42,531 bases of DNA from a virus. The notes beneath the pieces are model-generated. The model saw nothing but the letters and a program-made list of their open reading frames with translations. It made no database searches and was not told where the DNA came from. The translations under genes and the position numbers were made by a program. The stretch lies in IMG/VR virus record IMGVR_UViG_3300009503_000008, positions 1-42,531 of that record; one strand, given 5' to 3'. Shown here piece by piece: positions 12,589-19,703 of the stretch (positions are counted from its first letter, which is position 1; every line of letters starts with the position of its first letter).

Positions 12589-12726
12589 ATGAGTCACGGT
12601 CTCCTTGTTTTGGCGGGGGTACTACTGCTGGTGCTCCTGCCAATCGGCTTTTCTATCGACAAATCGGCCTATCAGCGCGGATTCCGCGATGGTCAGATGG
12701 ACGTGCTGAAACGCCGCCATGACTAG
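12589..12726 (+). CDS. Small membrane protein (45 aa)
   Basis: ATG at 12589 after GGGGAGGG. Translation is MSHGLLVLAGVLLLVLLPIGFSIDKSAYQRGFRDGQMDVLKRRHD. It overlaps the recombinase start. Confidence 0.35.
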   Translation: MSHGLLVLAGVLLLVLLPIGFSIDKSAYQRGFRDGQMDVLKRRHD

Positions 12727-14275
12727 GGCGCTTATCTATACCCGTTATTCCACGGACCGCCAACGTCAGGAGTCTACCTTGGCCCAGCTCCGTGCCTGCC
12801 GCGCCTACTGCGAGGTCCGGGGCTACACGATCGTCGCGGTCTTCTCCGATGAGGCCACCACCGGCACGACCGACGACAGACCGCAGTTTCAGGCGGCAAT
12901 GGACCTGGTGCGGTCGGGCGGGTGCGACGTGTTCGTGGTTCATAAACTCGACCGTTGGGCGAGGGATCGGATCGACGATGCGATCTATGACCGGGAGCTC
13001 CAGGCCGCCGGCGTGCGCCTGGAGTCCGTGGCGGAAGGCATAGACGAAAGCCGGCCGGCCGGCCATCTGATGCGCGGCGTGTTCACCGCGATAAACGATT
13101 TCTACTCCCGCAACCTCGCGGAGGAGTCGATGAAGGGACTCCGCGAAAATGCCTACCAGGGGCGGCACAACGGCGGCAAACCTCCCCTCGGCTATGACGT
13201 GGATAGGGATGGCCGCTACGTGGTCAACGAGCGGGAGGCGGCGGCCGTCCGCTTGATTTTCGCCATGGCGGCCGAGGGGCGGGGATACAGCGAAATAATT
13301 GACCGCATGACACGGGCCGGCTACACCACCAAGGTCGGCAAACCGTTCGGGAAGAATTCGATTCACGAACTTTTGACAAACGAGAAGTACATAGGGGTGT
13401 ATGTCTACAACCGCGTCCAGGAGCGCAAGCGGGGGCAGCCGCGTTCCAGCCGGCGGAGGAACCCGGAGGACAAAATCGTCCGGGTTCCGGGGGCGGTCCC
13501 GGCCATAATAGAGGAGGAGGTCTTTCGATCTGTGCAGGAAAAACTGGCCGCCCGCCGGTCCCACTCCGAGCGGGCCCGCAATGTCGCCAGGACGGTCTAC
13601 CTTTTGGCCGGCCTGGTCCGGTGCGGCGAATGCGGATCGGCCTACGTCGGCACGTCCACCGTCTGCCGGGGCAAACGCTACCACTACTACCAATGCGGCC
13701 GGCGTGCCCAGACGCGCGACTGCCGGGCCCGGCGAATCCCCAAGGAGGATCTGGAGGCCGTGGTGCTGGCCGAGGTGCGCCAGACGTTTTTCGGCCTGGA
13801 GGGGAATCGTCAAATAGTCGCCGACCTGGTGGAGATGTCCCGCCGGCAAAACGAGTCGGCCGGTCGGGAGATGGAGGAGGCCACGAAGGCGCTGGCGGCG
13901 GCCAAGCGTGAAAAGGAGAGACTGATCCAGGCCATCAAGGACGGCGTACCGGCCGCCGTGGTGAAGGATGAGCTGATGGCCGCCGACGCCAGGGTGACGG
14001 CCCTGCAGGGGGAAATCGAGAGGTTGTCGGCCGCCAAGGGGATCGAGATAACGCCTGGGATGGCGGAGAAATTCCTGCGGGAGCTGCGGAATGTGTATTC
14101 CGTAGTGCTGGAGGGAGGGGACGACCGCCGGGTGCAGGCGGCCATCCGGAGACTGGTGGGAGGGGTGGAGATCCAGGCGGATCGGGTCATCCTGGATCTC
14201 CGGATAAATTTGCAGGCTGATGGTGTCGGAGGCCCGACATGGGCGGCCTGCAAAGTGGTGACGACCAAAAAATAA
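12719..14275 (+). CDS. Large serine recombinase (phage integrase type)
   Basis: The resolvase catalytic domain is ALIYTRYSTDRQRQ...FVVHKLDRWARD. It is followed by a recombinase domain, the zinc ribbon CGECGSAY...YYQC and a C-terminal coiled coil. Length is 518 aa. Confidence 0.9.
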   Translation: MTRALIYTRYSTDRQRQESTLAQLRACRAYCEVRGYTIVAVFSDEATTGTTDDRPQFQAAMDLVRSGGCDVFVVHKLDRWARDRIDDAIYDRELQAAGVRLESVAEGIDESRPAGHLMRGVFTAINDFYSRNLAEESMKGLRENAYQGRHNGGKPPLGYDVDRDGRYVVNEREAAAVRLIFAMAAEGRGYSEIIDRMTRAGYTTKVGKPFGKNSIHELLTNEKYIGVYVYNRVQERKRGQPRSSRRRNPEDKIVRVPGAVPAIIEEEVFRSVQEKLAARRSHSERARNVARTVYLLAGLVRCGECGSAYVGTSTVCRGKRYHYYQCGRRAQTRDCRARRIPKEDLEAVVLAEVRQTFFGLEGNRQIVADLVEMSRRQNESAGREMEEATKALAAAKREKERLIQAIKDGVPAAVVKDELMAADARVTALQGEIERLSAAKGIEITPGMAEKFLRELRNVYSVVLEGGDDRRVQAAIRRLVGGVEIQADRVILDLRINLQADGVGGPTWAACKVVTTKK

Positions 14276-14376: not shown

Positions 14377-14396
14377 AACCCCACCGAAGCGGGGTT
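14377..14396. terminator. Bidirectional terminator-like hairpin between convergent genes
   Basis: AACCCC-accgaagc-GGGGTT, flanked by an A-run upstream and agttttc downstream. It lies between the integrase and RHH gene 3' ends. Confidence 0.4.
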
Positions 14397-14401
14397 AGTT
14401 T

Positions 14402-14611
14402 TCATGATTCTTGGAATTCTTTCTCTTGAATATATCGTTCTATGGCAGCTGCCAAGACATCCTGCCGGCTGACCGATACCCGCACCGGGCCCGTTTGGGC
14501 CGCTTTGGCCTCCGCGTCCAGACGGGCAACCAGGGCATCCAACTGGGCTAGGAGTTTTTCGGGAATCCGAACGTAAATTATTTTACTATTAGGGATTGTT
14601 TTGTTGGGCAT
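14402..14611 (-). CDS. Ribbon-helix-helix (CopG/Arc-like) protein; last gene of the cassette
   Basis: IIYVRIPEKLLAQLDALVARL...SRQDVLAAAIERYI fits the strand-helix-helix RHH layout. Confidence 0.65.
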   Translation of the reverse strand: MPNKTIPNSKIIYVRIPEKLLAQLDALVARLDAEAKAAQTGPVRVSVSRQDVLAAAIERYIQEKEFQES

Positions 14612-14658
14612 ATTGTATTCTCCTTTCTCCCGCCTTAGCCGGGCGGGACGGCTATGTA
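14612..14658 (-). promoter_or_regulatory. Cassette intergenic module A (TACATA-hairpin-RBS)
   Basis: mRNA sense: TACATAGCC-gTCCCGCCcggctaaGGCGGGAg-AAAGGAGAatacaat-ATG. A perfect hairpin GCCGGGGCcaaaGCCCCGGC lies just upstream (14664-14683). Confidence 0.6.
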
Positions 14659-14683
14659 GAGGTGCCGGGGCTTTGGCCCCGGC

Positions 14684-15469
14684 CTAGTCTACCCTGCCAC
14701 CGTTCGGGAAGCGGTGCAGGGCGATATATGCACCCTGCCCGACTTCGATGGGGTCATGGTCCCGGGCGATGATACGAACGGGACCACGCAGGTACAGGGC
14801 GGCACGCGGAAACCCGTTGTAGAGCACGCCGAGAGGGGTAGCGTGCTCCTCGTTGTCCTCCGGAACATCCACTTCGCCGGCATCTACCGGCACGTGGTTG
14901 AAAAACCACGGCCGGTGGGTAGGCCAGGAGTTCCAAGTGGCGAGGTCCGCCGGCAACGCCTCGGGCTGAGTGACAATTTCGAGTCCGCCCTGGGTGATCA
15001 CGGGCTCCCCTTCTATTGCCGCCGGGGCGTTGGTGTCGTTTTGGGCACTTGTCGCCCAGAACACCGGCCGGCCATAGTGCCAGCCGGCCAGGGAGGGGGC
15101 AAGCACGAACACATCCATGAGGTTTTTTGCCGGCGTCAGCGGCGCAAGCCCAACGCGCCGCGCCAGCGAGAAGAGTGAACCTACCATGGCAGCGGGCACG
15201 GTCAGCCGCACCCACTCGCCAACATATCCGTCTACGGGGTGTGGCGCAGGCGGTTCCCCGCCGATTTGGAGGTGATGGCGGCCGTTCCAGGCCGCCAGGA
15301 TGGCGCCCGTGTCCTGACCAGGCTGGTAGTCCACCAGCTGATGGCTGACGTAGGGGCTGTTGAGCCCCGCCGCGTGGGCCTCTATGGCCCCTACCTGCAC
15401 GGTAGGAGCCGTGCAGGCGCAGATGGATTCGACGGCGCTTTGCAGGCGGTTAAGGTCGATCAAACGCAT
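14684..15469 (-). CDS. Hypothetical protein (261 aa), cassette gene 6
   Basis: ORF 14684..15604. The start at 15469 (MRLIDLNRLQSAVES...) follows an AAAGGAGA SD and module B. I recognise no family. Confidence 0.6.
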   Translation of the reverse strand: MRLIDLNRLQSAVESICACTAPTVQVGAIEAHAAGLNSPYVSHQLVDYQPGQDTGAILAAWNGRHHLQIGGEPPAPHPVDGYVGEWVRLTVPAAMVGSLFSLARRVGLAPLTPAKNLMDVFVLAPSLAGWHYGRPVFWATSAQNDTNAPAAIEGEPVITQGGLEIVTQPEALPADLATWNSWPTHRPWFFNHVPVDAGEVDVPEDNEEHATPLGVLYNGFPRAALYLRGPVRIIARDHDPIEVGQGAYIALHRFPNGGRVD

Positions 15470-15519
15470 GAAAATTCTCCTTTCGCCCCGGCGGCTTAGT
15501 CCCGCCCGCAGGCTATGTA
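15470..15519 (-). promoter_or_regulatory. Cassette intergenic module B
   Basis: mRNA sense: TACATAGCC-tgcGGGCGGgactaagCCGCCggggcg-AAAGGAGAattttc-ATG. A long hairpin lies at 15526-15568 (CCCGCTCCcTGCCCGC...GCGGGCAaGGAGCGGG). Confidence 0.55.
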
Positions 15520-15578
15520 CTATGGCCCGCTCCTTGCCCGCTGGACGTTCTGGCGGGCAGGGAGCGGGAGACAGGGGC

Positions 15579-16313
15579 CTAGAGACCCAGTGCAACGGCC
15601 TCATGCGGCTCGACTTCGCGGGGCCTGCCGGCCTCGCTTAACCGCATGAGGACTGAACCTCTGCGGCGGGTCCTCCATTGCCGCCATACCGCCGTGCCAG
15701 GATCGCCGGTGACCAGGGAAATGTAGCCATTTCCCTGGAGGTCCATCCTGACCCCCTCACAACCGGTGACGGGAGTGATGTCCTGGCGGGCTGCCAGGAC
15801 AAATTTTCCTGGAGCCGGAATCAGCCGATATATCTCCACCCCGGCCGCTTCACCTGCGGCCTCGTAGGTATACCCCGGCCACACATGGCCGGAATACGAA
15901 AACTCAATGCCTGGTGTCCCAGCGGCCTGGGGGCCCACAAGGGCCTGGCCCCAGCGGCCGTTCTGTGACTTCCGCAGGAGGAGGGTTACCTCCTCCTTTG
16001 CCGCCGCTTGTGCTGGCGGCGGGACGACCGTTACTTGGTAGGTAACGGCCTCGCCGGCCACCTGCCGCAGGGTCTCAAGGTCTAACTCTTTCCCCCGGAG
16101 CTCAGGGGAAAGAGTAAGAGGAATTTCTGTCACGCTGGCAGCGAGCGCCGCCAGCGACAAAGGGAGTACCCCAATGACGTGTTTCCCCTGTACGTCCTGC
16201 GGGGTGGCGTGCGAAATAACACGCACGTCATCCCCGATTAGGCCGCGCTCCCGAAGGAGCTCAACCAAAGCCGGATGCCGAGTTACTACAATTGTGTTTT
16301 CCATATTATTCAT
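15579..16313 (-). CDS. Csx16-like (VVA1548-family) N-terminal domain fused to an unknown C-terminal domain (244 aa), cassette gene 5
   Basis: NTIVVTRHPALVELLRERGL...VISHATPQDVQGKHVIGVLPLSLAALAASVTEIPLTLSPELRGKELDLETL matches my recollection of the Csx16 pattern (v.sRH.ga.eWl...g....Hl....i..gd.ViG.LP..LAA.v......L.l.lp...RG.EL). The start is at 16313 or 16304. Confidence 0.5.
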   Translation of the reverse strand: MNNMENTIVVTRHPALVELLRERGLIGDDVRVISHATPQDVQGKHVIGVLPLSLAALAASVTEIPLTLSPELRGKELDLETLRQVAGEAVTYQVTVVPPPAQAAAKEEVTLLLRKSQNGRWGQALVGPQAAGTPGIEFSYSGHVWPGYTYEAAGEAAGVEIYRLIPAPGKFVLAARQDITPVTGCEGVRMDLQGNGYISLVTGDPGTAVWRQWRTRRRGSVLMRLSEAGRPREVEPHEAVALGL

Positions 16314-16354
16314 TCCTTTCTCCCGCCCTTTAGCCCGGGCGGGCTGGATTATGT
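16314..16354 (-). promoter_or_regulatory. Cassette intergenic module C
   Basis: mRNA sense: ACATAATCC-agCCCGCCCgggctaaaGGGCGGGag-AAAGGA-ATG. The upstream element at 16355-16392 is homologous to 17428-17470. Confidence 0.55.
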
Positions 16355-16403
16355 TCGGTGGCCGGTTGTTCACCCGGACGACCAGCCGAGGTGCGGGGCT
16401 AAT

Positions 16404-16820
16404 CTACCACGCACTAACGACAACATCCCCTTCCTGCGTTGTGAAGCTCTTAACGAGCTCCACAACTGGGAAATAAAAGGTTTTCATAAGGAAATCCTCC
16501 TGAATGGGGAACGAATTCCCCCTCACAATGCTGTAGCGAGGAATATCCTTCTGAACCCATGTCACCCGTTGAATGGGGCAGGTGACGATCATATCCGCCC
16601 CCTCGGGCCAGGGACCTTTCCAGCGGTCCCTGGGGCACGGCTCTGCGCTCATGACGTAGACTTGGAAGTTTTCACTCATGTCTACGCCACGAGCGCGGTC
16701 AAAATAGGCCACTCGTGGGGTGGGTTGTGCCCCATCCAACGGCTGGACAAAATCGTCGAACCACTTCCCAGCACATTGGTTCGGGGTATTGAGGTATCCG
16801 CAGAACTCATAGATTTTCAT
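16404..16820 (-). CDS. Hypothetical protein (138 aa), cassette gene 4
   Basis: Complete ORF starting MKIYEFCGYLNTPNQCAGKWF..., behind AAAGGAAGG and module D. Confidence 0.6.
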   Translation of the reverse strand: MKIYEFCGYLNTPNQCAGKWFDDFVQPLDGAQPTPRVAYFDRARGVDMSENFQVYVMSAEPCPRDRWKGPWPEGADMIVTCPIQRVTWVQKDIPRYSIVRGNSFPIQEDFLMKTFYFPVVELVKSFTTQEGDVVVSAW

Positions 16821-16868
16821 TTTTATCCTTCCTTTCTGCCGCCTTTTGCCCGGCGGCAGGGCTATGTA
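16821..16868 (-). promoter_or_regulatory. Cassette intergenic module D
   Basis: mRNA sense: TACATAGCC-CTGCCGCCgggcaaaaGGCGGCAG-AAAGGAAGGataaaa-ATG. It begins 3 nt after the upstream stop. Confidence 0.6.
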
Positions 16869-16871
16869 CCT

Positions 16872-17378
16872 TTAGGCTTCTTCCCGCGCAACCCAGCGGT
16901 ACGCGGGACTATAGAAACGCTGATTCTCCTGCCTTTCCGCCGCCTCAATCTCCGCCGCGAGATGGCGGAACCGCGCGGCGAAAGAGCAGCGACGTGGTAC
17001 GTAGACAACGCGGTTAAAGCTGTCCACACAGACCCGGCGGAAGTCCATCTTCCGTGTGCCAGCGTAGTAAATATCCACCATGCTGGCGACAGTAGCCAGG
17101 TCTACGCGAACCTCCACGTCATCCATCTGACGCGCCGGGATGTCCTGGCGCGGGATAAGGACGTAGACATGGCCTGTCAAGAATGGCCGGTACAAGCTAA
17201 AGCACGTTTCACATGGAGTGAATGCGGTGAGTTTTTGTTGGGCGGAGACGTGATACAGAGGCGTCCCCGCTGGGATAACAACGGGTTCATCGTGTAAGCC
17301 GGCGTCCATATAACTATACATTCGCGCCGGCGGCTTTTGGGCTATCGCAGAGACAGGAACGCGCTCGCCACGTTTCAT
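16872..17378 (-). CDS. Hypothetical protein (168 aa), cassette gene 3
   Basis: Complete ORF starting MKRGERVPVSAIAQKPPARMYSYMDAGL..., behind AAAGGGGA and module E. Confidence 0.6.
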   Translation of the reverse strand: MKRGERVPVSAIAQKPPARMYSYMDAGLHDEPVVIPAGTPLYHVSAQQKLTAFTPCETCFSLYRPFLTGHVYVLIPRQDIPARQMDDVEVRVDLATVASMVDIYYAGTRKMDFRRVCVDSFNRVVYVPRRCSFAARFRHLAAEIEAAERQENQRFYSPAYRWVAREEA

Positions 17379-17427
17379 CGTTCTTTCCCCTTTCTGCCGC
17401 CTTCGCCCCGGCGGCCGGGCTTATGTA
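17379..17427 (-). promoter_or_regulatory. Cassette intergenic module E
   Basis: mRNA sense: TACATAAGCC-cgGCCGCCggggcgaaGGCGGCag-AAAGGGGAaagaacg-ATG. Confidence 0.6.
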
Positions 17428-17477
17428 GGGAACCAGTGGCCGGTTGGTAACCCGGACGGCCAGCCGGAGAGTTAGAT

Positions 17478-17693
17478 TTAATAAAAAGCTTTGTCGCCTA
17501 TAAGATTGACTATTACCTCGTCCGGAGTCTGCCGGACCACCTCTATGGCCTCGGGTAAACCGAAGCCCTTGGCCGGGCGGCGCACTCCGTCTTCTTCGTG
17601 TCCGAGTACCCAGCAGATCCGTCCTACCAACGGTTCGTATCCCGGGAATCCCCAAAATGCTTTTCTGGCGATTTGTTCTTTGTCCAAGTTCAT
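17478..17693 (-). CDS. Hypothetical protein (71 aa), cassette gene 2
   Basis: The track ORF is 17478..17798. I prefer the internal start at 17693 (MNLDKEQIARKAFWGF...) because AAAGGAGA and a module copy precede it. Confidence 0.5.
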   Translation of the reverse strand: MNLDKEQIARKAFWGFPGYEPLVGRICWVLGHEEDGVRRPAKGFGLPEAIEVVRQTPDEVIVNLIGDKAFY

Positions 17694-17759
17694 TCTCCTT
17701 TCATTTTTTCCCTTGAGCGTAGGGCCCCGAAGGGCCCGGCCGGCATTCTCGGCCTTGTA
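17694..17759 (-). promoter_or_regulatory. Cassette intergenic module G (divergent copy)
   Basis: mRNA sense: TACAAGGCC-...GGGCCCttcgGGGCCC...-AAAGGAGA-ATG. Confidence 0.4.
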
Positions 17760-17794
17760 CCTAGCGGGATTATTCAGAAGAATTTTTTCTGTTT

Positions 17795-18046
17795 TCATTG
17801 CAGAGCCCCCTTTTTCAATGCGGCCAGTTTATTTTGGTAAACCTGCCAAATTGCCTGTCTAACTTCTGACCGTTTGCGTTCATCGTTACCGGCCACGATA
17901 TTAACTAGTCGGCTAGCATTTCGACTTAGATTTACCGCGGTAACTCGATATCCTTTGTCCCATAAAATATCAGCAACTTTAGCTACGTCCAGAGGGTCAA
18001 GAAATAATTCATCGTCCATAAGTGTACTAGCAAGCTGGTTTTTCAT
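17795..18046 (-). CDS. Hypothetical helical protein (83 aa), cassette gene 1
   Basis: Complete ORF starting MKNQLASTLMDDELFLDPLDVAKVADILW..., behind AAAGGGGA and module F. Confidence 0.6.
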   Translation of the reverse strand: MKNQLASTLMDDELFLDPLDVAKVADILWDKGYRVTAVNLSRNASRLVNIVAGNDERKRSEVRQAIWQVYQNKLAALKKGALQ

Positions 18047-18094
18047 TTTCTTCCCCTTTCTCCGCCCCGCACCCCGGCGGCCAGGTCGTATGTA
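18047..18094 (-). promoter_or_regulatory. Cassette intergenic module F
   Basis: mRNA sense: TACATACGACC-tggCCGCCggggtgcgGGGCGGag-AAAGGGGAagaaa-ATG. The perfect hairpin GGCCGGGAcctaaTCCCGGCC lies at 18096-18116. Confidence 0.55.
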
Positions 18095-18265
18095 TGGCCG
18101 GGATTAGGTCCCGGCCACCGCTGGTTTCCTTCGTTCTCCTGTCCCCTCGTCGCGGCCGTTGGGACTGCCGCTCTTGGCCAGGTATCCGGGTACTGGCGGT
18201 CTCTATATTCTGTTTTCAAGGAGCCGCCGGTTGCCCGGCCCGGTGTCGTTTTTCGATCTGGCATA

Positions 18266-18294
18266 ATCTTAGCACCGTCACGACAGCCTGTCAA
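18266..18294 (-). promoter_or_regulatory. Near-consensus sigma70 promoter for the cassette (TTGACA-17-TAAGAT)
   Basis: The minus strand reads TTGACAggctgtcgtgacggtgcTAAGAT. The -35 is at 18294-18289 and the -10 at 18271-18266. It lies about 220 nt upstream of gene 1. Confidence 0.55.
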
Positions 18295-18555
18295 GACCTT
18301 GTCAGATTTTATTTTTCCCTACAGCCACGTGGGTTTGCTGGTTTCAGTATCGGCGAACGGTCAGGATCGACAGGCGAATGGTCGAATAGAACGGTTGAAC
18401 GGTTTAGCCCTACAGCCGTAAGCCCTTCAGCTATTTGAACATTTTTTTATTTTTTTTATTTTTTCTCTTTTTTACCATTTCCTGATATATAGATACAAAA
18501 GGTTGGTTATGTATCGTGGGAAAAGCTTAAATATGTGGAAAATTTTGTGTTAAAC

Positions 18556-18679
18556 GAAAAGAAGAAATAGGAGGGCGGGAAGAAAGAAAAGGGGAGAAGG
18601 GAAAGGATAGAAGAATAGAAGAAGAGGGAAAAGGGAAGAGGGAAAGGAGAAGGAGAGGGAAAAGGGGAAGGGAAAGGAA
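18556..18679 (+). repeat. Polypurine (A/G) low-complexity tract
   Basis: About 124 nt contain only about 4 pyrimidines. Positions 18617-18679 form an uninterrupted 63-nt A/G run (GGAAAGG-like units), followed by a pyrimidine run at 18681-18713. Confidence 0.85.
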
Positions 18680-18692
18680 TGCCTTTTCTTTT

Positions 18693-18760
18693 CTTTATTT
18701 TCTTTTCTTTTCCATAGATAGGGTAGGAGATAAGGGAATGGAAAAGAAAAGAAAATAAAG
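18693..18760. repeat. Perfect 21-bp inverted repeat with a 26-nt spacer
   Basis: ctttattttcttttcttttcc (18693-18713) pairs with ggaaaagaaaagaaaataaag (18740-18760). Confidence 0.85.
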
Positions 18761-18842: not shown

Positions 18843-19703
18843 TTATATCTTTGGCAGATAACCCGCAATCCTATCTTCCGGGTGAACATGCGTATATTTC
18901 TGCGTAGTGAGCAGACTGGCATGTCCCAGCGTCTCCTGCACCACCCGTATATTGGCCCCGGCTTCCAGGGCGTCGGTCGCTCCGGTATGCCGCAGCCAGT
19001 GGGGAGATACGTTTTTCCCCAGGCCAGCCAGCTCCCCGGCCCGGCGGACTATCCTGTATCCCCACTGCCGCTTGAACGGCCAAACTAGGTCGTCCGGTTC
19101 GATGTTGGCGGGTCCGTACAGACGCACCATTTGCTGTACCAGGTGCAGAGGTATCTTCACCGTCCGGGTCTTATCTCCCTTCCCTCGAACGGTCATGAAG
19201 AACCATTCCCCCGTTTCGTCCGGCCTGATCTCCCGCCAGCGTACTGACACGCTCTCCTCCACGCGCAAGGTGGAGTAGTATAGAAACCTGATATACACCG
19301 CATCCCGGTGGTTATGACTCTCTGCGGCGGCTATCAGGTCTTCCAGCTCCCGCCGAGTCAGTACCCGCTCGGCGGTTTTGTCCTTGGGTGTCCGTATCTT
19401 CTGACCGGTCCAGGGATTGCTCTGCACTATTCCTTCCTTAATTAACTTATTCCACAGGCTGGACATGGCGGCCACCGTCAGCGCGACCGTGGCGTCCGAG
19501 TACCCGTCGGCGTAAAGCTTCTTGATAACCAGCATGGCCTCGTCGGCGGTCAGTGACGGTATCCGCCAAGTGGCAACGTTGATCCGGCGCAGGGCGGCGA
19601 GGTAGGTTTGGTTGGTGCTCCCGCTCGTGGGCGCGATCAGCCAGCGGTTGATCACCCGCTCGATGTCGTCAGGGTGTCTGCCGGACGGTACGATGTCAGA
19701 CAT
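18843..19703 (-). CDS. Tyrosine recombinase, XerC/XerD-sized (286 aa)
   Basis: An N-terminal SAM-like core-binding region is followed by the catalytic motifs R...HWLRHTGAT...LGHASLLTTQKYTHV. Confidence 0.9.
   Translation of the reverse strand: MSDIVPSGRHPDDIERVINRWLIAPTSGSTNQTYLAALRRINVATWRIPSLTADEAMLVIKKLYADGYSDATVALTVAAMSSLWNKLIKEGIVQSNPWTGQKIRTPKDKTAERVLTRRELEDLIAAAESHNHRDAVYIRFLYYSTLRVEESVSVRWREIRPDETGEWFFMTVRGKGDKTRTVKIPLHLVQQMVRLYGPANIEPDDLVWPFKRQWGYRIVRRAGELAGLGKNVSPHWLRHTGATDALEAGANIRVVQETLGHASLLTTQKYTHVHPEDRIAGYLPKI

Follow-up and report, generated by a model that had tools for sequence, protein, structure and literature searches.

The DNA analysed here, called the window below, is the whole 42,531-nucleotide stretch of the IMG/VR virus record IMGVR_UViG_3300009503_000008. 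On its minus strand lies a gene that encodes a protein of two domains, an N-terminal domain resembling the CRISPR-linked ring nuclease Csx16 and a C-terminal domain that we call X. The positions of this Csx16-X fusion gene and of the features around it are collected in Table 1. The stop-to-stop frame of the gene reaches a GTG at 16373, and the second of its ATG codons, at 16304, gives a 241-residue product (MENTIVV...). The second ATG is probably the real start, because a Shine-Dalgarno sequence (AGAAAGGA) lies 9 nt 5' of it and because P0001, an identical database protein, begins at the same position. Residues are numbered throughout according to the 244-residue version. Full-length homologues that are 62-90% identical to the window protein are found in metagenomes. 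Comparison with a 76% identical homologue (locus L001) gave ratios of nonsynonymous to synonymous substitution (dN/dS) of 0.09 for the N-terminal domain and 0.12 for the C-terminal domain. Ratios of about 0.1 in both halves indicate that both domains are under purifying selection; the gene is thus genuine and maintained, not an open reading frame (ORF) that arose by chance.

The N-terminal domain was recognized by several profiles. Pfam PF09652 (Cas_VVA1548) matched residues 9-94 with an E-value of 2e-17 and 63.6 bits (the gathering score is 25), and the match spanned profile positions 2-90 of 91. Three PADLOC Csx16 models matched the same residues, the best being PDLC01635 (7.5e-18). A preliminary description of this DNA had seen a Csx16/VVA1548 pattern in this half of the protein; the peptide strings it quoted are all in the protein, and the profile match and the retained motifs of CRISPR-linked Csx16 proteins uphold that reading. 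Upon alignment with the Csx16 proteins of A. vinosum (Allochromatium vinosum, type III-B-linked) and A. tepidum, the common motifs were [S/T]11-R12-H13 (T11-R12-H13 in the window protein), H35, I47-G48-x-L50-P51, E71-L-R73-G74-x-E76-L77 and Y92. The same motif positions are near-invariant among 100 mobile-element relatives. The AlphaFold2 (AF2) model of the domain, a monomer with predicted local distance difference test (pLDDT) scores above 96, has five strands and four helices, a helix-flanked beta-sheet that resembles the published core of Csx16 and Csx20 (PMC12409355).

The preliminary description also stated that Csx16 had been proposed to act on cyclic oligoadenylates (cOA). That wording is now outdated, as Csx16 has been demonstrated to be a ring nuclease specific for cyclic tetra-adenylate (cA4) in vitro, with cyclic tri-adenylate (cA3) and hexa-adenylate (cA6) not degraded (Hoikkala et al., PMC12409355). 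The window N-domain is like Csx16 (PF09652/TIGR02620) in its end-to-end Pfam match and its motifs, and possibly in its core, which is predicted to be five-stranded. The differences are in setting and architecture. The window gene lies in no CRISPR locus, its neighbours being integrases and small ORFs without a family, and canonical Csx16 proteins are of about 95-105 residues and lack the 135-residue C-terminal domain of the window protein. Other searches with the window protein were negative: the Pfam scan gave no match to PF08960 (DUF1874), PHROGs held no family for the protein, tblastn against GenBank phages gave no match, and a sequence search of the PDB with the whole protein returned only noise, no solved Csx16 structure being found. 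A Foldseek search of the PDB with the full model gave nothing under E=0.08. The sole structural match below 1e-3 came from BFVD, where the full two-domain model matched A0A1X9SKG1, an uncharacterised 184-residue protein of Sulfolobus islandicus rod-shaped virus 11 (E=1.8e-4 over 160 columns, template-modelling (TM) scores of 0.29/0.36). Type III CRISPR systems classically target rudiviruses, which are also a source of type III anti-CRISPRs.

The C-terminal ~150 residues had no Pfam, NCBIfam, PHROG or PADLOC match, in keeping with the earlier view that the protein carries an extra domain without a family. However, the domain is by no means confined to this protein. A profile of the C-terminal domain run against 1.84 billion representatives gave 142 matches, 79 of them below 1e-10, mostly stand-alone proteins of 155-170 residues. 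Conversely, a hidden Markov model (HMM) built from the stand-alone members of about 160 residues matched window residues ~112-244 with an E-value of 2.2e-30. One Asn, two Gly and one Arg are invariant in the family, near-invariant motifs are S-x-N-G-R-W-G, L-Q and G-Y-K-x-R-S-S, and no Asp, Glu or His is invariant. This conservation persists at 25-35% identity among proteins from many environments. In the window protein the motifs read S116-Q-N118-G-R120-W-G122, L192-Q193 and R218. The AF2 model of the C-terminal domain by itself is all-beta with about ten strands (pLDDT 91.8, predicted TM score 0.83), and a Foldseek search of the PDB with that model returned nothing under E=0.097 and no TM score above 0.28.

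The stand-alone X proteins match no Pfam or PHROG family and are named only "hypothetical protein". The X representative P0141, used as a single tblastn query, found no match in GenBank phages or PLSDB plasmids, and single X proteins used as queries against IMG/VR found none there. The isoelectric points of the stand-alone proteins have a median of 5.7 and range from 4.6 to 9.9. Most of these proteins (e.g., P0112, P0114, P0123, P0134 and P0141) end in a proline-rich linker followed by a short helix of consensus G-A-L-A-[ED]-A-L-R-K-A-G-L (ALxxALRKAGL), which has the look of a tethered docking peptide for a partner. The helix is missing from the window subgroup and from many fusions. We also considered X as a hidden copy of Csx16 or DUF1874 and rejected this, the hhalign probabilities being 0.2% and 0.1%, respectively. 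A match of the X profile to the PWWP domain of DNMT3B among PDB sequences was judged spurious, as it was significant only for an artificial tandem construct and single copies gave E~0.09.

The associations of X are with ring nucleases. When 138 X clusters were classified with local HMMs, 125 were stand-alone, six had Crn4 followed by X, one X followed by Crn4, four Csx16 followed by X and one X followed by Csx16. Fusion has thus arisen more than once, each of two unrelated nucleases being involved and both domain orders occurring. The second fusion partner is a domain of about 110 residues that starts NLTPHP, matches Crn4b (PDB 9r7b; E=2e-13) and Crn4a (1.5e-11), and keeps the equivalents of catalytic residues T13, H15 and R112. 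One of the Crn4-X fusions sits on an IMG/VR viral contig. Adjacency gave the same picture as fusion. In five of seven informative gene contexts of stand-alone X proteins (Table 1), the directly adjacent gene encodes a ring nuclease of one of three unrelated folds, namely Csx16, Crn4 or DUF1874. By comparison, published surveys put the share of phage genomes with a ring nuclease at about 0.15%. The DUF1874 case was verified with homologues of the P0114 neighbour: PF08960 was present in 21 of 21, and their profile matched AFV3-109 (5.5e-12), STIV B116, the Crn2 part of Csx1-Crn2 and AcrIII-1 (6scf). As X recurs either fused or adjacent to ring nucleases, we read the window protein, from these comparisons of sequence and gene order, as the fused form of a ring-nuclease-then-X pair that recurs on mobile elements.

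Two of these contexts have features of their own. In that of P0153 (L087), the PF09652 ORF at 1558-2070 (E=8.7e-17) had been passed over by the source gene caller in favour of an ORF on the opposite strand; the first 100 nt or so of the X gene lie within this Csx16-like frame, and the arrangement could be a frameshifted fusion or translational coupling. About 1 kb 3' of the Csx16 and X pair of P0112 lies a gene for a SLOG/LDcluster4 (DprA-like) protein (L010 7452-8069, L011 2516-3133). The SLOG/LDcluster4 family has earlier been linked to nucleotide-sensing conflict systems.

We propose that the product of the Csx16-X gene is a counter-defence protein with two modules, carried by a temperate phage-like element and aimed at the cOA signalling of type III CRISPR-Cas systems, and we put the probability of this reading at roughly 0.6. 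The gene would probably be an anti-CRISPR and X a new partner module. By homology with the characterised enzyme, the Csx16 module would form a dimer that binds cA4 and opens the ring to yield inactive linear products, and effectors that cA4 activates, such as Csm6/Csx1, Can2 or CalpL, would then stay off. X, by its associations, would act in the same pathway. Most likely it would bind a nucleotide ligand, either a cOA species that its partner handles poorly or the linear products A4>P and A2>P. As a capture (sponge) domain or as a second processing activity, it would make removal of the signal wider or sharper. Our best guess for X is thus nucleotide binding or processing, because its conserved set is basic, polar and aromatic, without the invariant acidic residues or His, and resembles metal-independent cOA sites more than surfaces that inhibit Cas proteins. 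The preliminary description had drawn an analogy with AcrIII-1 (Crn2; DUF1874, PF08960), and this has become stronger because X keeps company with both Crn4 and DUF1874/AcrIII-1. The proposed action is the same, a virus-encoded destruction of cA4 that blinds type III effectors, but the window protein is unrelated to AcrIII-1 in fold and sequence family; the likeness is in proposed function and not in family membership.

Several results weigh against this proposal. The NCBIfam model TIGR02620, a hypothetical equivalog domain, scored 26.9 bits against a cutoff of 46.35, although the alignment was kept over its full length. Hence, the N-domain is better regarded as a diverged branch of the Csx16 family, and the assignment made in the preliminary description stands with the Pfam and PADLOC models but not with this one. 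As to structure, the model has a five-stranded core, but Foldseek with the full model gave no match of the N-domain to a ring nuclease or to a CRISPR-associated Rossmann fold (CARF) protein. The pair T62-E63 is near-invariant in the phage clade and not in CRISPR-linked Csx16, and substrate specificity could therefore differ. In the X domain, the window subgroup has R-T where the family has the near-invariant G-Y of GYKxRSS. In P0005, a Csx16-X homologue with 62% identity, the T-R-H motif is replaced by T-S-N and R73 by Q, so that R12, H13 and R73 are all lost. The nuclease of P0005 is therefore probably inactive while its X domain is intact, and catalysis can evidently be dispensed with in at least one lineage. 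P0006, P0007 and P0008 are 85-92% identical to the window protein in X but have a ~50-residue N-terminal domain in place of Csx16, the exchange falling exactly at the interdomain linker, and X therefore also works without a ring nuclease. The eight stand-alone contexts looked up, of which seven were informative, are a small sample. X was found within 5 kb of only one of 52 viral Csx16-like loci, which argues that Csx16 function does not need X and that any dependence runs one way. Lastly, family scans of the window recognized no capsid, portal or terminase gene, and the word phage is therefore likely but unproven.

Two further readings concern what X does within an anti-type-III protein. A tentative one, which we regard as having appreciably less than an even chance, is that X is a new fold that recognises cOA or its breakdown products, either as a sponge or as a ring nuclease with, for example, cA6 or cA3 as its substrate. 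If that were so, and only together with it, mobile elements would have joined X to cA4 ring nucleases of at least three folds to give broad-spectrum suppression, and proteins of the P0006-8 type, in which a possible DNA-binding domain precedes X, would be cOA-responsive regulators. That N-terminal domain possibly binds DNA as a ribbon-helix-helix (RHH); the label comes only from a reading of the sequence pattern, as Pfam found no match in it. Alternatively, and in our view rather doubtfully, X could be a protein-binding module, an inhibitor of Csm/Cmr or of an effector, or a tether to the source or the target of cA4. The nuclease would then clear the signal while X blocked the signal-independent arm (HD nuclease, RNA cleavage) or raised local efficiency. 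The dominance of the stand-alone form, at 125 of 138 clusters, would be expected of a protein of autonomous value such as the classic anti-CRISPR (Acr) proteins, the proline-rich linker and C-terminal helix of most stand-alone X proteins resemble a docking peptide, and the occurrence of both fusion orders with two nuclease folds fits tethering. The P0006-8 proteins moreover resemble known fusions of an Acr with an anti-CRISPR-associated (Aca) protein. AcrIIA1 and AcrIF24 are such fusions. However, a compact set of residues conserved at 25-35% identity is unusual for inhibitors that must track fast-evolving Cas surfaces, and the wide range of isoelectric points gives no consistent signature of a DNA mimic.

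The remaining alternatives give up the counter-defence role. It is improbable, to our mind, that the protein is a cA4-responsive device of the element itself, in which cA4 would be sensed, and its signal switched off, by the Csx16, Crn4 or DUF1874 module, with X as the output domain and with possible uses in competition between elements or in the timing of lysis and lysogeny. Such a device would have a parallel in the self-limiting fusions Csx1-Crn2, Csm6-2-Crn4 and TIR-SAVED-Crn4 of type III loci. CRISPR loci are known to encode ring nucleases fused to effectors (PMC12830947), PADLOC contains CARF-HEPN-Csx16 and CARF-Csx16-TM architectures, and a P0006-type protein with its possible DNA-binding domain and X occurs on an element with type IV Csf1 and Csf3. 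Yet no Cas10 or cOA synthase was present in the window or in the X contexts examined, the frequent encoding of X and the nuclease as two polypeptides is a poor fit to allosteric coupling of sensor and effector, X has no invariant Asp, Glu or His of a catalytic type and does not resemble known effector folds, and the CRISPR-linked Csx16 loci inspected were without X. The least credible alternative is that the Csx16-like fold of this phage clade was repurposed for some task unrelated to cOA (another nucleotide, replication or repair) and that the neighbourhood of X reflects generic clustering of accessory genes. The sub-cutoff TIGR02620 score, the clade-specific T62-E63, the joining of the domain to many different extensions at both ends and the DNA ligase and primase genes in some contexts would all suit repurposing. 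On the other hand, every motif held in common with CRISPR-linked Csx16 is kept, cOA ring cleavage is the only known property common to the three unrelated folds that partner X, and loose clustering of genes cannot account for covalent fusions. The proposal of a counter-defence protein directed at cOA signalling remains the one we prefer.

The fusions reported under the heading "Fuse to defuse" (Csx1-Crn2, Csm6-2-Crn4 and TIR-SAVED-Crn4) likewise combine a ring nuclease with a second domain of the cOA pathway, as X is proposed to be. Their partners are known cOA-activated effectors in CRISPR loci, whereas X is an all-beta domain that occurs on mobile elements and has no Cas10 in its vicinity. 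The Crn4 family (Crn4a and Crn4b; PDB 9qs9, 9sma and 9r7b) is a broad-spectrum ring nuclease found also on phages and plasmids, for which only a 60-80-residue N-terminal extension in some mobile-element copies is described, an X domain being unmentioned (PMC12830947). Crn4-like domains are fused to the same X as the window Csx16, but the window protein itself has no Crn4 domain.

Csx16-like genes also occur outside CRISPR loci. A survey of phages recorded Csx16 in 2 of 28,114 genomes (PMC12409355). A search of IMG/VR with only two peptide patterns gave 52 viral contigs with close Csx16-like genes, which indicates that enzymes of the Csx16 type are far commoner on uncultivated viruses than the figure from isolate genomes implies. 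The mobile-element clade is tight, its members being 55-75% identical and having extra invariant residues, and its Csx16-like domain bears many different N- and C-terminal extensions. On 104 contigs, a terminase gene is located some 4 kb from the gene for a 139-residue relative. Plasmids also carry such genes with no CRISPR system nearby. In Deinococcus proteolyticus pMRP pDEIPR02 (L026 8992-9276), the Csx16 gene is among small ORFs and genes for single-stranded DNA-binding proteins, an array resembling a conjugative leading region, and in Allomeiothermus silvanus pMESIL02 (L027 9013-9798) a tandem double-Csx16 protein is encoded beside type IV secretion coupling proteins. These plasmid genes off CRISPR loci are consistent with anti-defence use by plasmids. 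In CRISPR loci the setting is different: the A. vinosum Csx16 gene lies between csm6 and cas2/cas1, with cmr6 also present, and that of A. tepidum likewise adjoins csm6, cas1 and cas2. No X was found in the CRISPR-linked Csx16 loci inspected, and a scan of genome contigs with the Csx16-like alignment gave 10 loci from metagenome-assembled genomes, none with X. Conversely, no cas10, other cas gene or cOA synthase gene was found beside X in the contexts examined, the sole cas-bearing locus being L006 (1-14481; ENA k141_867328). That locus is an element that encodes an integrase, the type IV proteins Csf1 and Csf3 and two PAPS-reductase/DndC-like proteins; its P0008 gene is about 5 kb from the csf genes.

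The loci of the close homologues show no synteny with the neighbours of the window gene. The 76% identical homologue (L001/L082; IMGVR_UViG_3300005573_000069, 110 kb) is encoded inside a long array of small ORFs without a known family, with neighbours that include GmrSD_N, a DNA ligase, a T4-type RNA ligase 1 (Rnl1), a Zeta/PNK-like kinase, Mom, an RlaP nucleotidyltransferase and a CCA-adding enzyme. The region looks like an island of tRNA repair and counter-defence. After the gene for P0005 (L004 5958-6695, L005 2126-2863) come five or more ORFs in a row, of 129-144 residues, that look like paralogues of one another.

The window itself looks, by its gene content, like a temperate phage-like element. 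It encodes a RecT-like annealing protein, an exonuclease, a replication initiator, a large DNA methyltransferase, a helix-turn-helix repressor, a serine integrase and a tyrosine integrase, together with a glycoside-hydrolase (lysin-like) domain, a fn3 protein and a weak match to a minor-tail PHROG. With homologues of the Csx16-X protein on IMG/VR viral contigs as well, the viral setting given in the preliminary description is borne out, as is the lack of a CRISPR-Cas context: the window contained no CRISPR array or tRNA, and no cas family was found among the ORFs scanned. Megablast of 16 kb of the window against GenBank phages gave no match. The right arm (20900-42531), which presumably holds the structural and lysis genes, has almost no detectable relatives; its ten large ORFs gave only the glycoside-hydrolase-like, fn3 and weak minor-tail PHROG matches, and two of them found nothing by tblastn against 50,697 phage records.

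Table 1. Features of the window and gene contexts of stand-alone X proteins. Positions are those of the window; for the eight X proteins at the end, the loci are named instead.
Feature	Position or locus	Strand	Remarks
Csx16-X fusion gene	15579..16313, including the stop codon	minus	244 residues from the first ATG (16313); intact ORF
N-terminal Csx16-like (PF09652) domain	16032..16289	minus	Residues 9-94; Pfam, PADLOC, AF2 and alignment
Pro/Ala-rich interdomain linker	15987..16031	minus	Residues ~95-109; pLDDT 57 for block 101-110
C-terminal all-beta X domain	15582..15986	minus	Residues ~110-244; X HMM and AF2 model
Element 5' of the Csx16-X gene	16305..16350	minus	ACATA, GC-rich hairpin (CCCGCCC...GGGCGGG) and AGAAAGGA Shine-Dalgarno
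Putative accessory operon with the Csx16-X gene	14377..18294	minus	Seven ORFs between two integrases
Sigma-70-like promoter	18294-18266	minus	Start of the cassette
ORF83	17795-18046	minus	No family match
ORF106	17478-17798	minus	No family match
ORF168	16872-17378	minus	No family match
ORF138	16404-16820	minus	No family match; directly before Csx16-X
ORF261	14684-15469	minus	No family match; directly after Csx16-X
ORF69	14402-14611	minus	Last cassette ORF, 69 residues; possible RHH
Terminator-like hairpin	14396-14377	minus	End of the cassette
Serine integrase (large serine recombinase)	12719-14275	plus	
Tyrosine integrase	18843-19703	minus	
P0112	L010-12		95-residue PF09652 (Csx16) gene 50 bp upstream
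P0153	L087		PF09652 ORF upstream, overlooked by gene caller
P0116	L014		Crn4-like gene upstream, HMM E=4e-23
P0120	L083		Crn4-like gene upstream, E=2.6e-5, STPH motif
P0114	L013		Overlapping 112-residue DUF1874 gene downstream
P0127	L015		No recognisable nuclease
P0124	L084, L085		No recognisable nuclease
P0132	L086		Contig too short for judgement

The Csx16-X gene belongs to a cassette of seven ORFs that, because of their common strand, their spacing and the elements they share upstream, we infer to form one operon. A similar element of about 45 nt precedes six of the seven ORFs and is composed of an invariant ACATA, a GC-rich hairpin, an AGAAAGG Shine-Dalgarno sequence and the ATG (14609-18110, minus strand). 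The copies are at about 14618-14652, 15473-15519, 16313-16347, 16827-16861, 17385-17419 and 18051-18085. The sequence of the hairpin stem varies between copies while pairing is kept, with compensatory changes in two of six pairs. The element could be a promoter or processing site for each gene, a hairpin for translational control, an operator for the ORF69 protein or a junction for shuffling of the cassette. The RHH_1 match of ORF69 (E=0.039) scored 14.4 bits, short of the cutoff of 20.5, and a PDB search gave no match for it. A precedent for such an arrangement is Aca14 with phage csx20, where the co-opted ring nuclease Csx20 is in a phage operon that ends in a small RHH repressor (PMC13551039). 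The window cassette also ends in a small ORF, but its RHH_1 match is sub-threshold and its nuclease is Csx16, not Csx20. The two integrases flanking the cassette are of different families, which is unusual for one 42-kb element, and an AT-rich and purine-rich tract of tandem repeats (18442-18710) lies between the cassette promoter and the tyrosine integrase.

Phage-borne Csx16 and the viral ring-nuclease anti-CRISPRs (AcrIII-1, AcrIII-2, phage Crn4b and Csx20) are kinds already known. The X family and its tie to three ring-nuclease folds are, as far as the ring-nuclease literature shows, without a description. X has probably been overlooked because of the lack of matches in GenBank phage and PLSDB records seen with the P0141 query. 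Of the routes known to take phages past type III CRISPR signalling, viral ring nucleases are the main one, and structural and mechanistic work has followed from every new family. X and its partner proteins are small and easily expressed, which makes direct testing possible, and if X were a new cOA-recognition fold the upside would be considerable. A module common to three unrelated ring nucleases points to an undescribed step in counter-defence against cOA signalling, which may be capture of the signal, removal of the products, a means of dealing with a second species of cOA or a tether to the CRISPR machinery.

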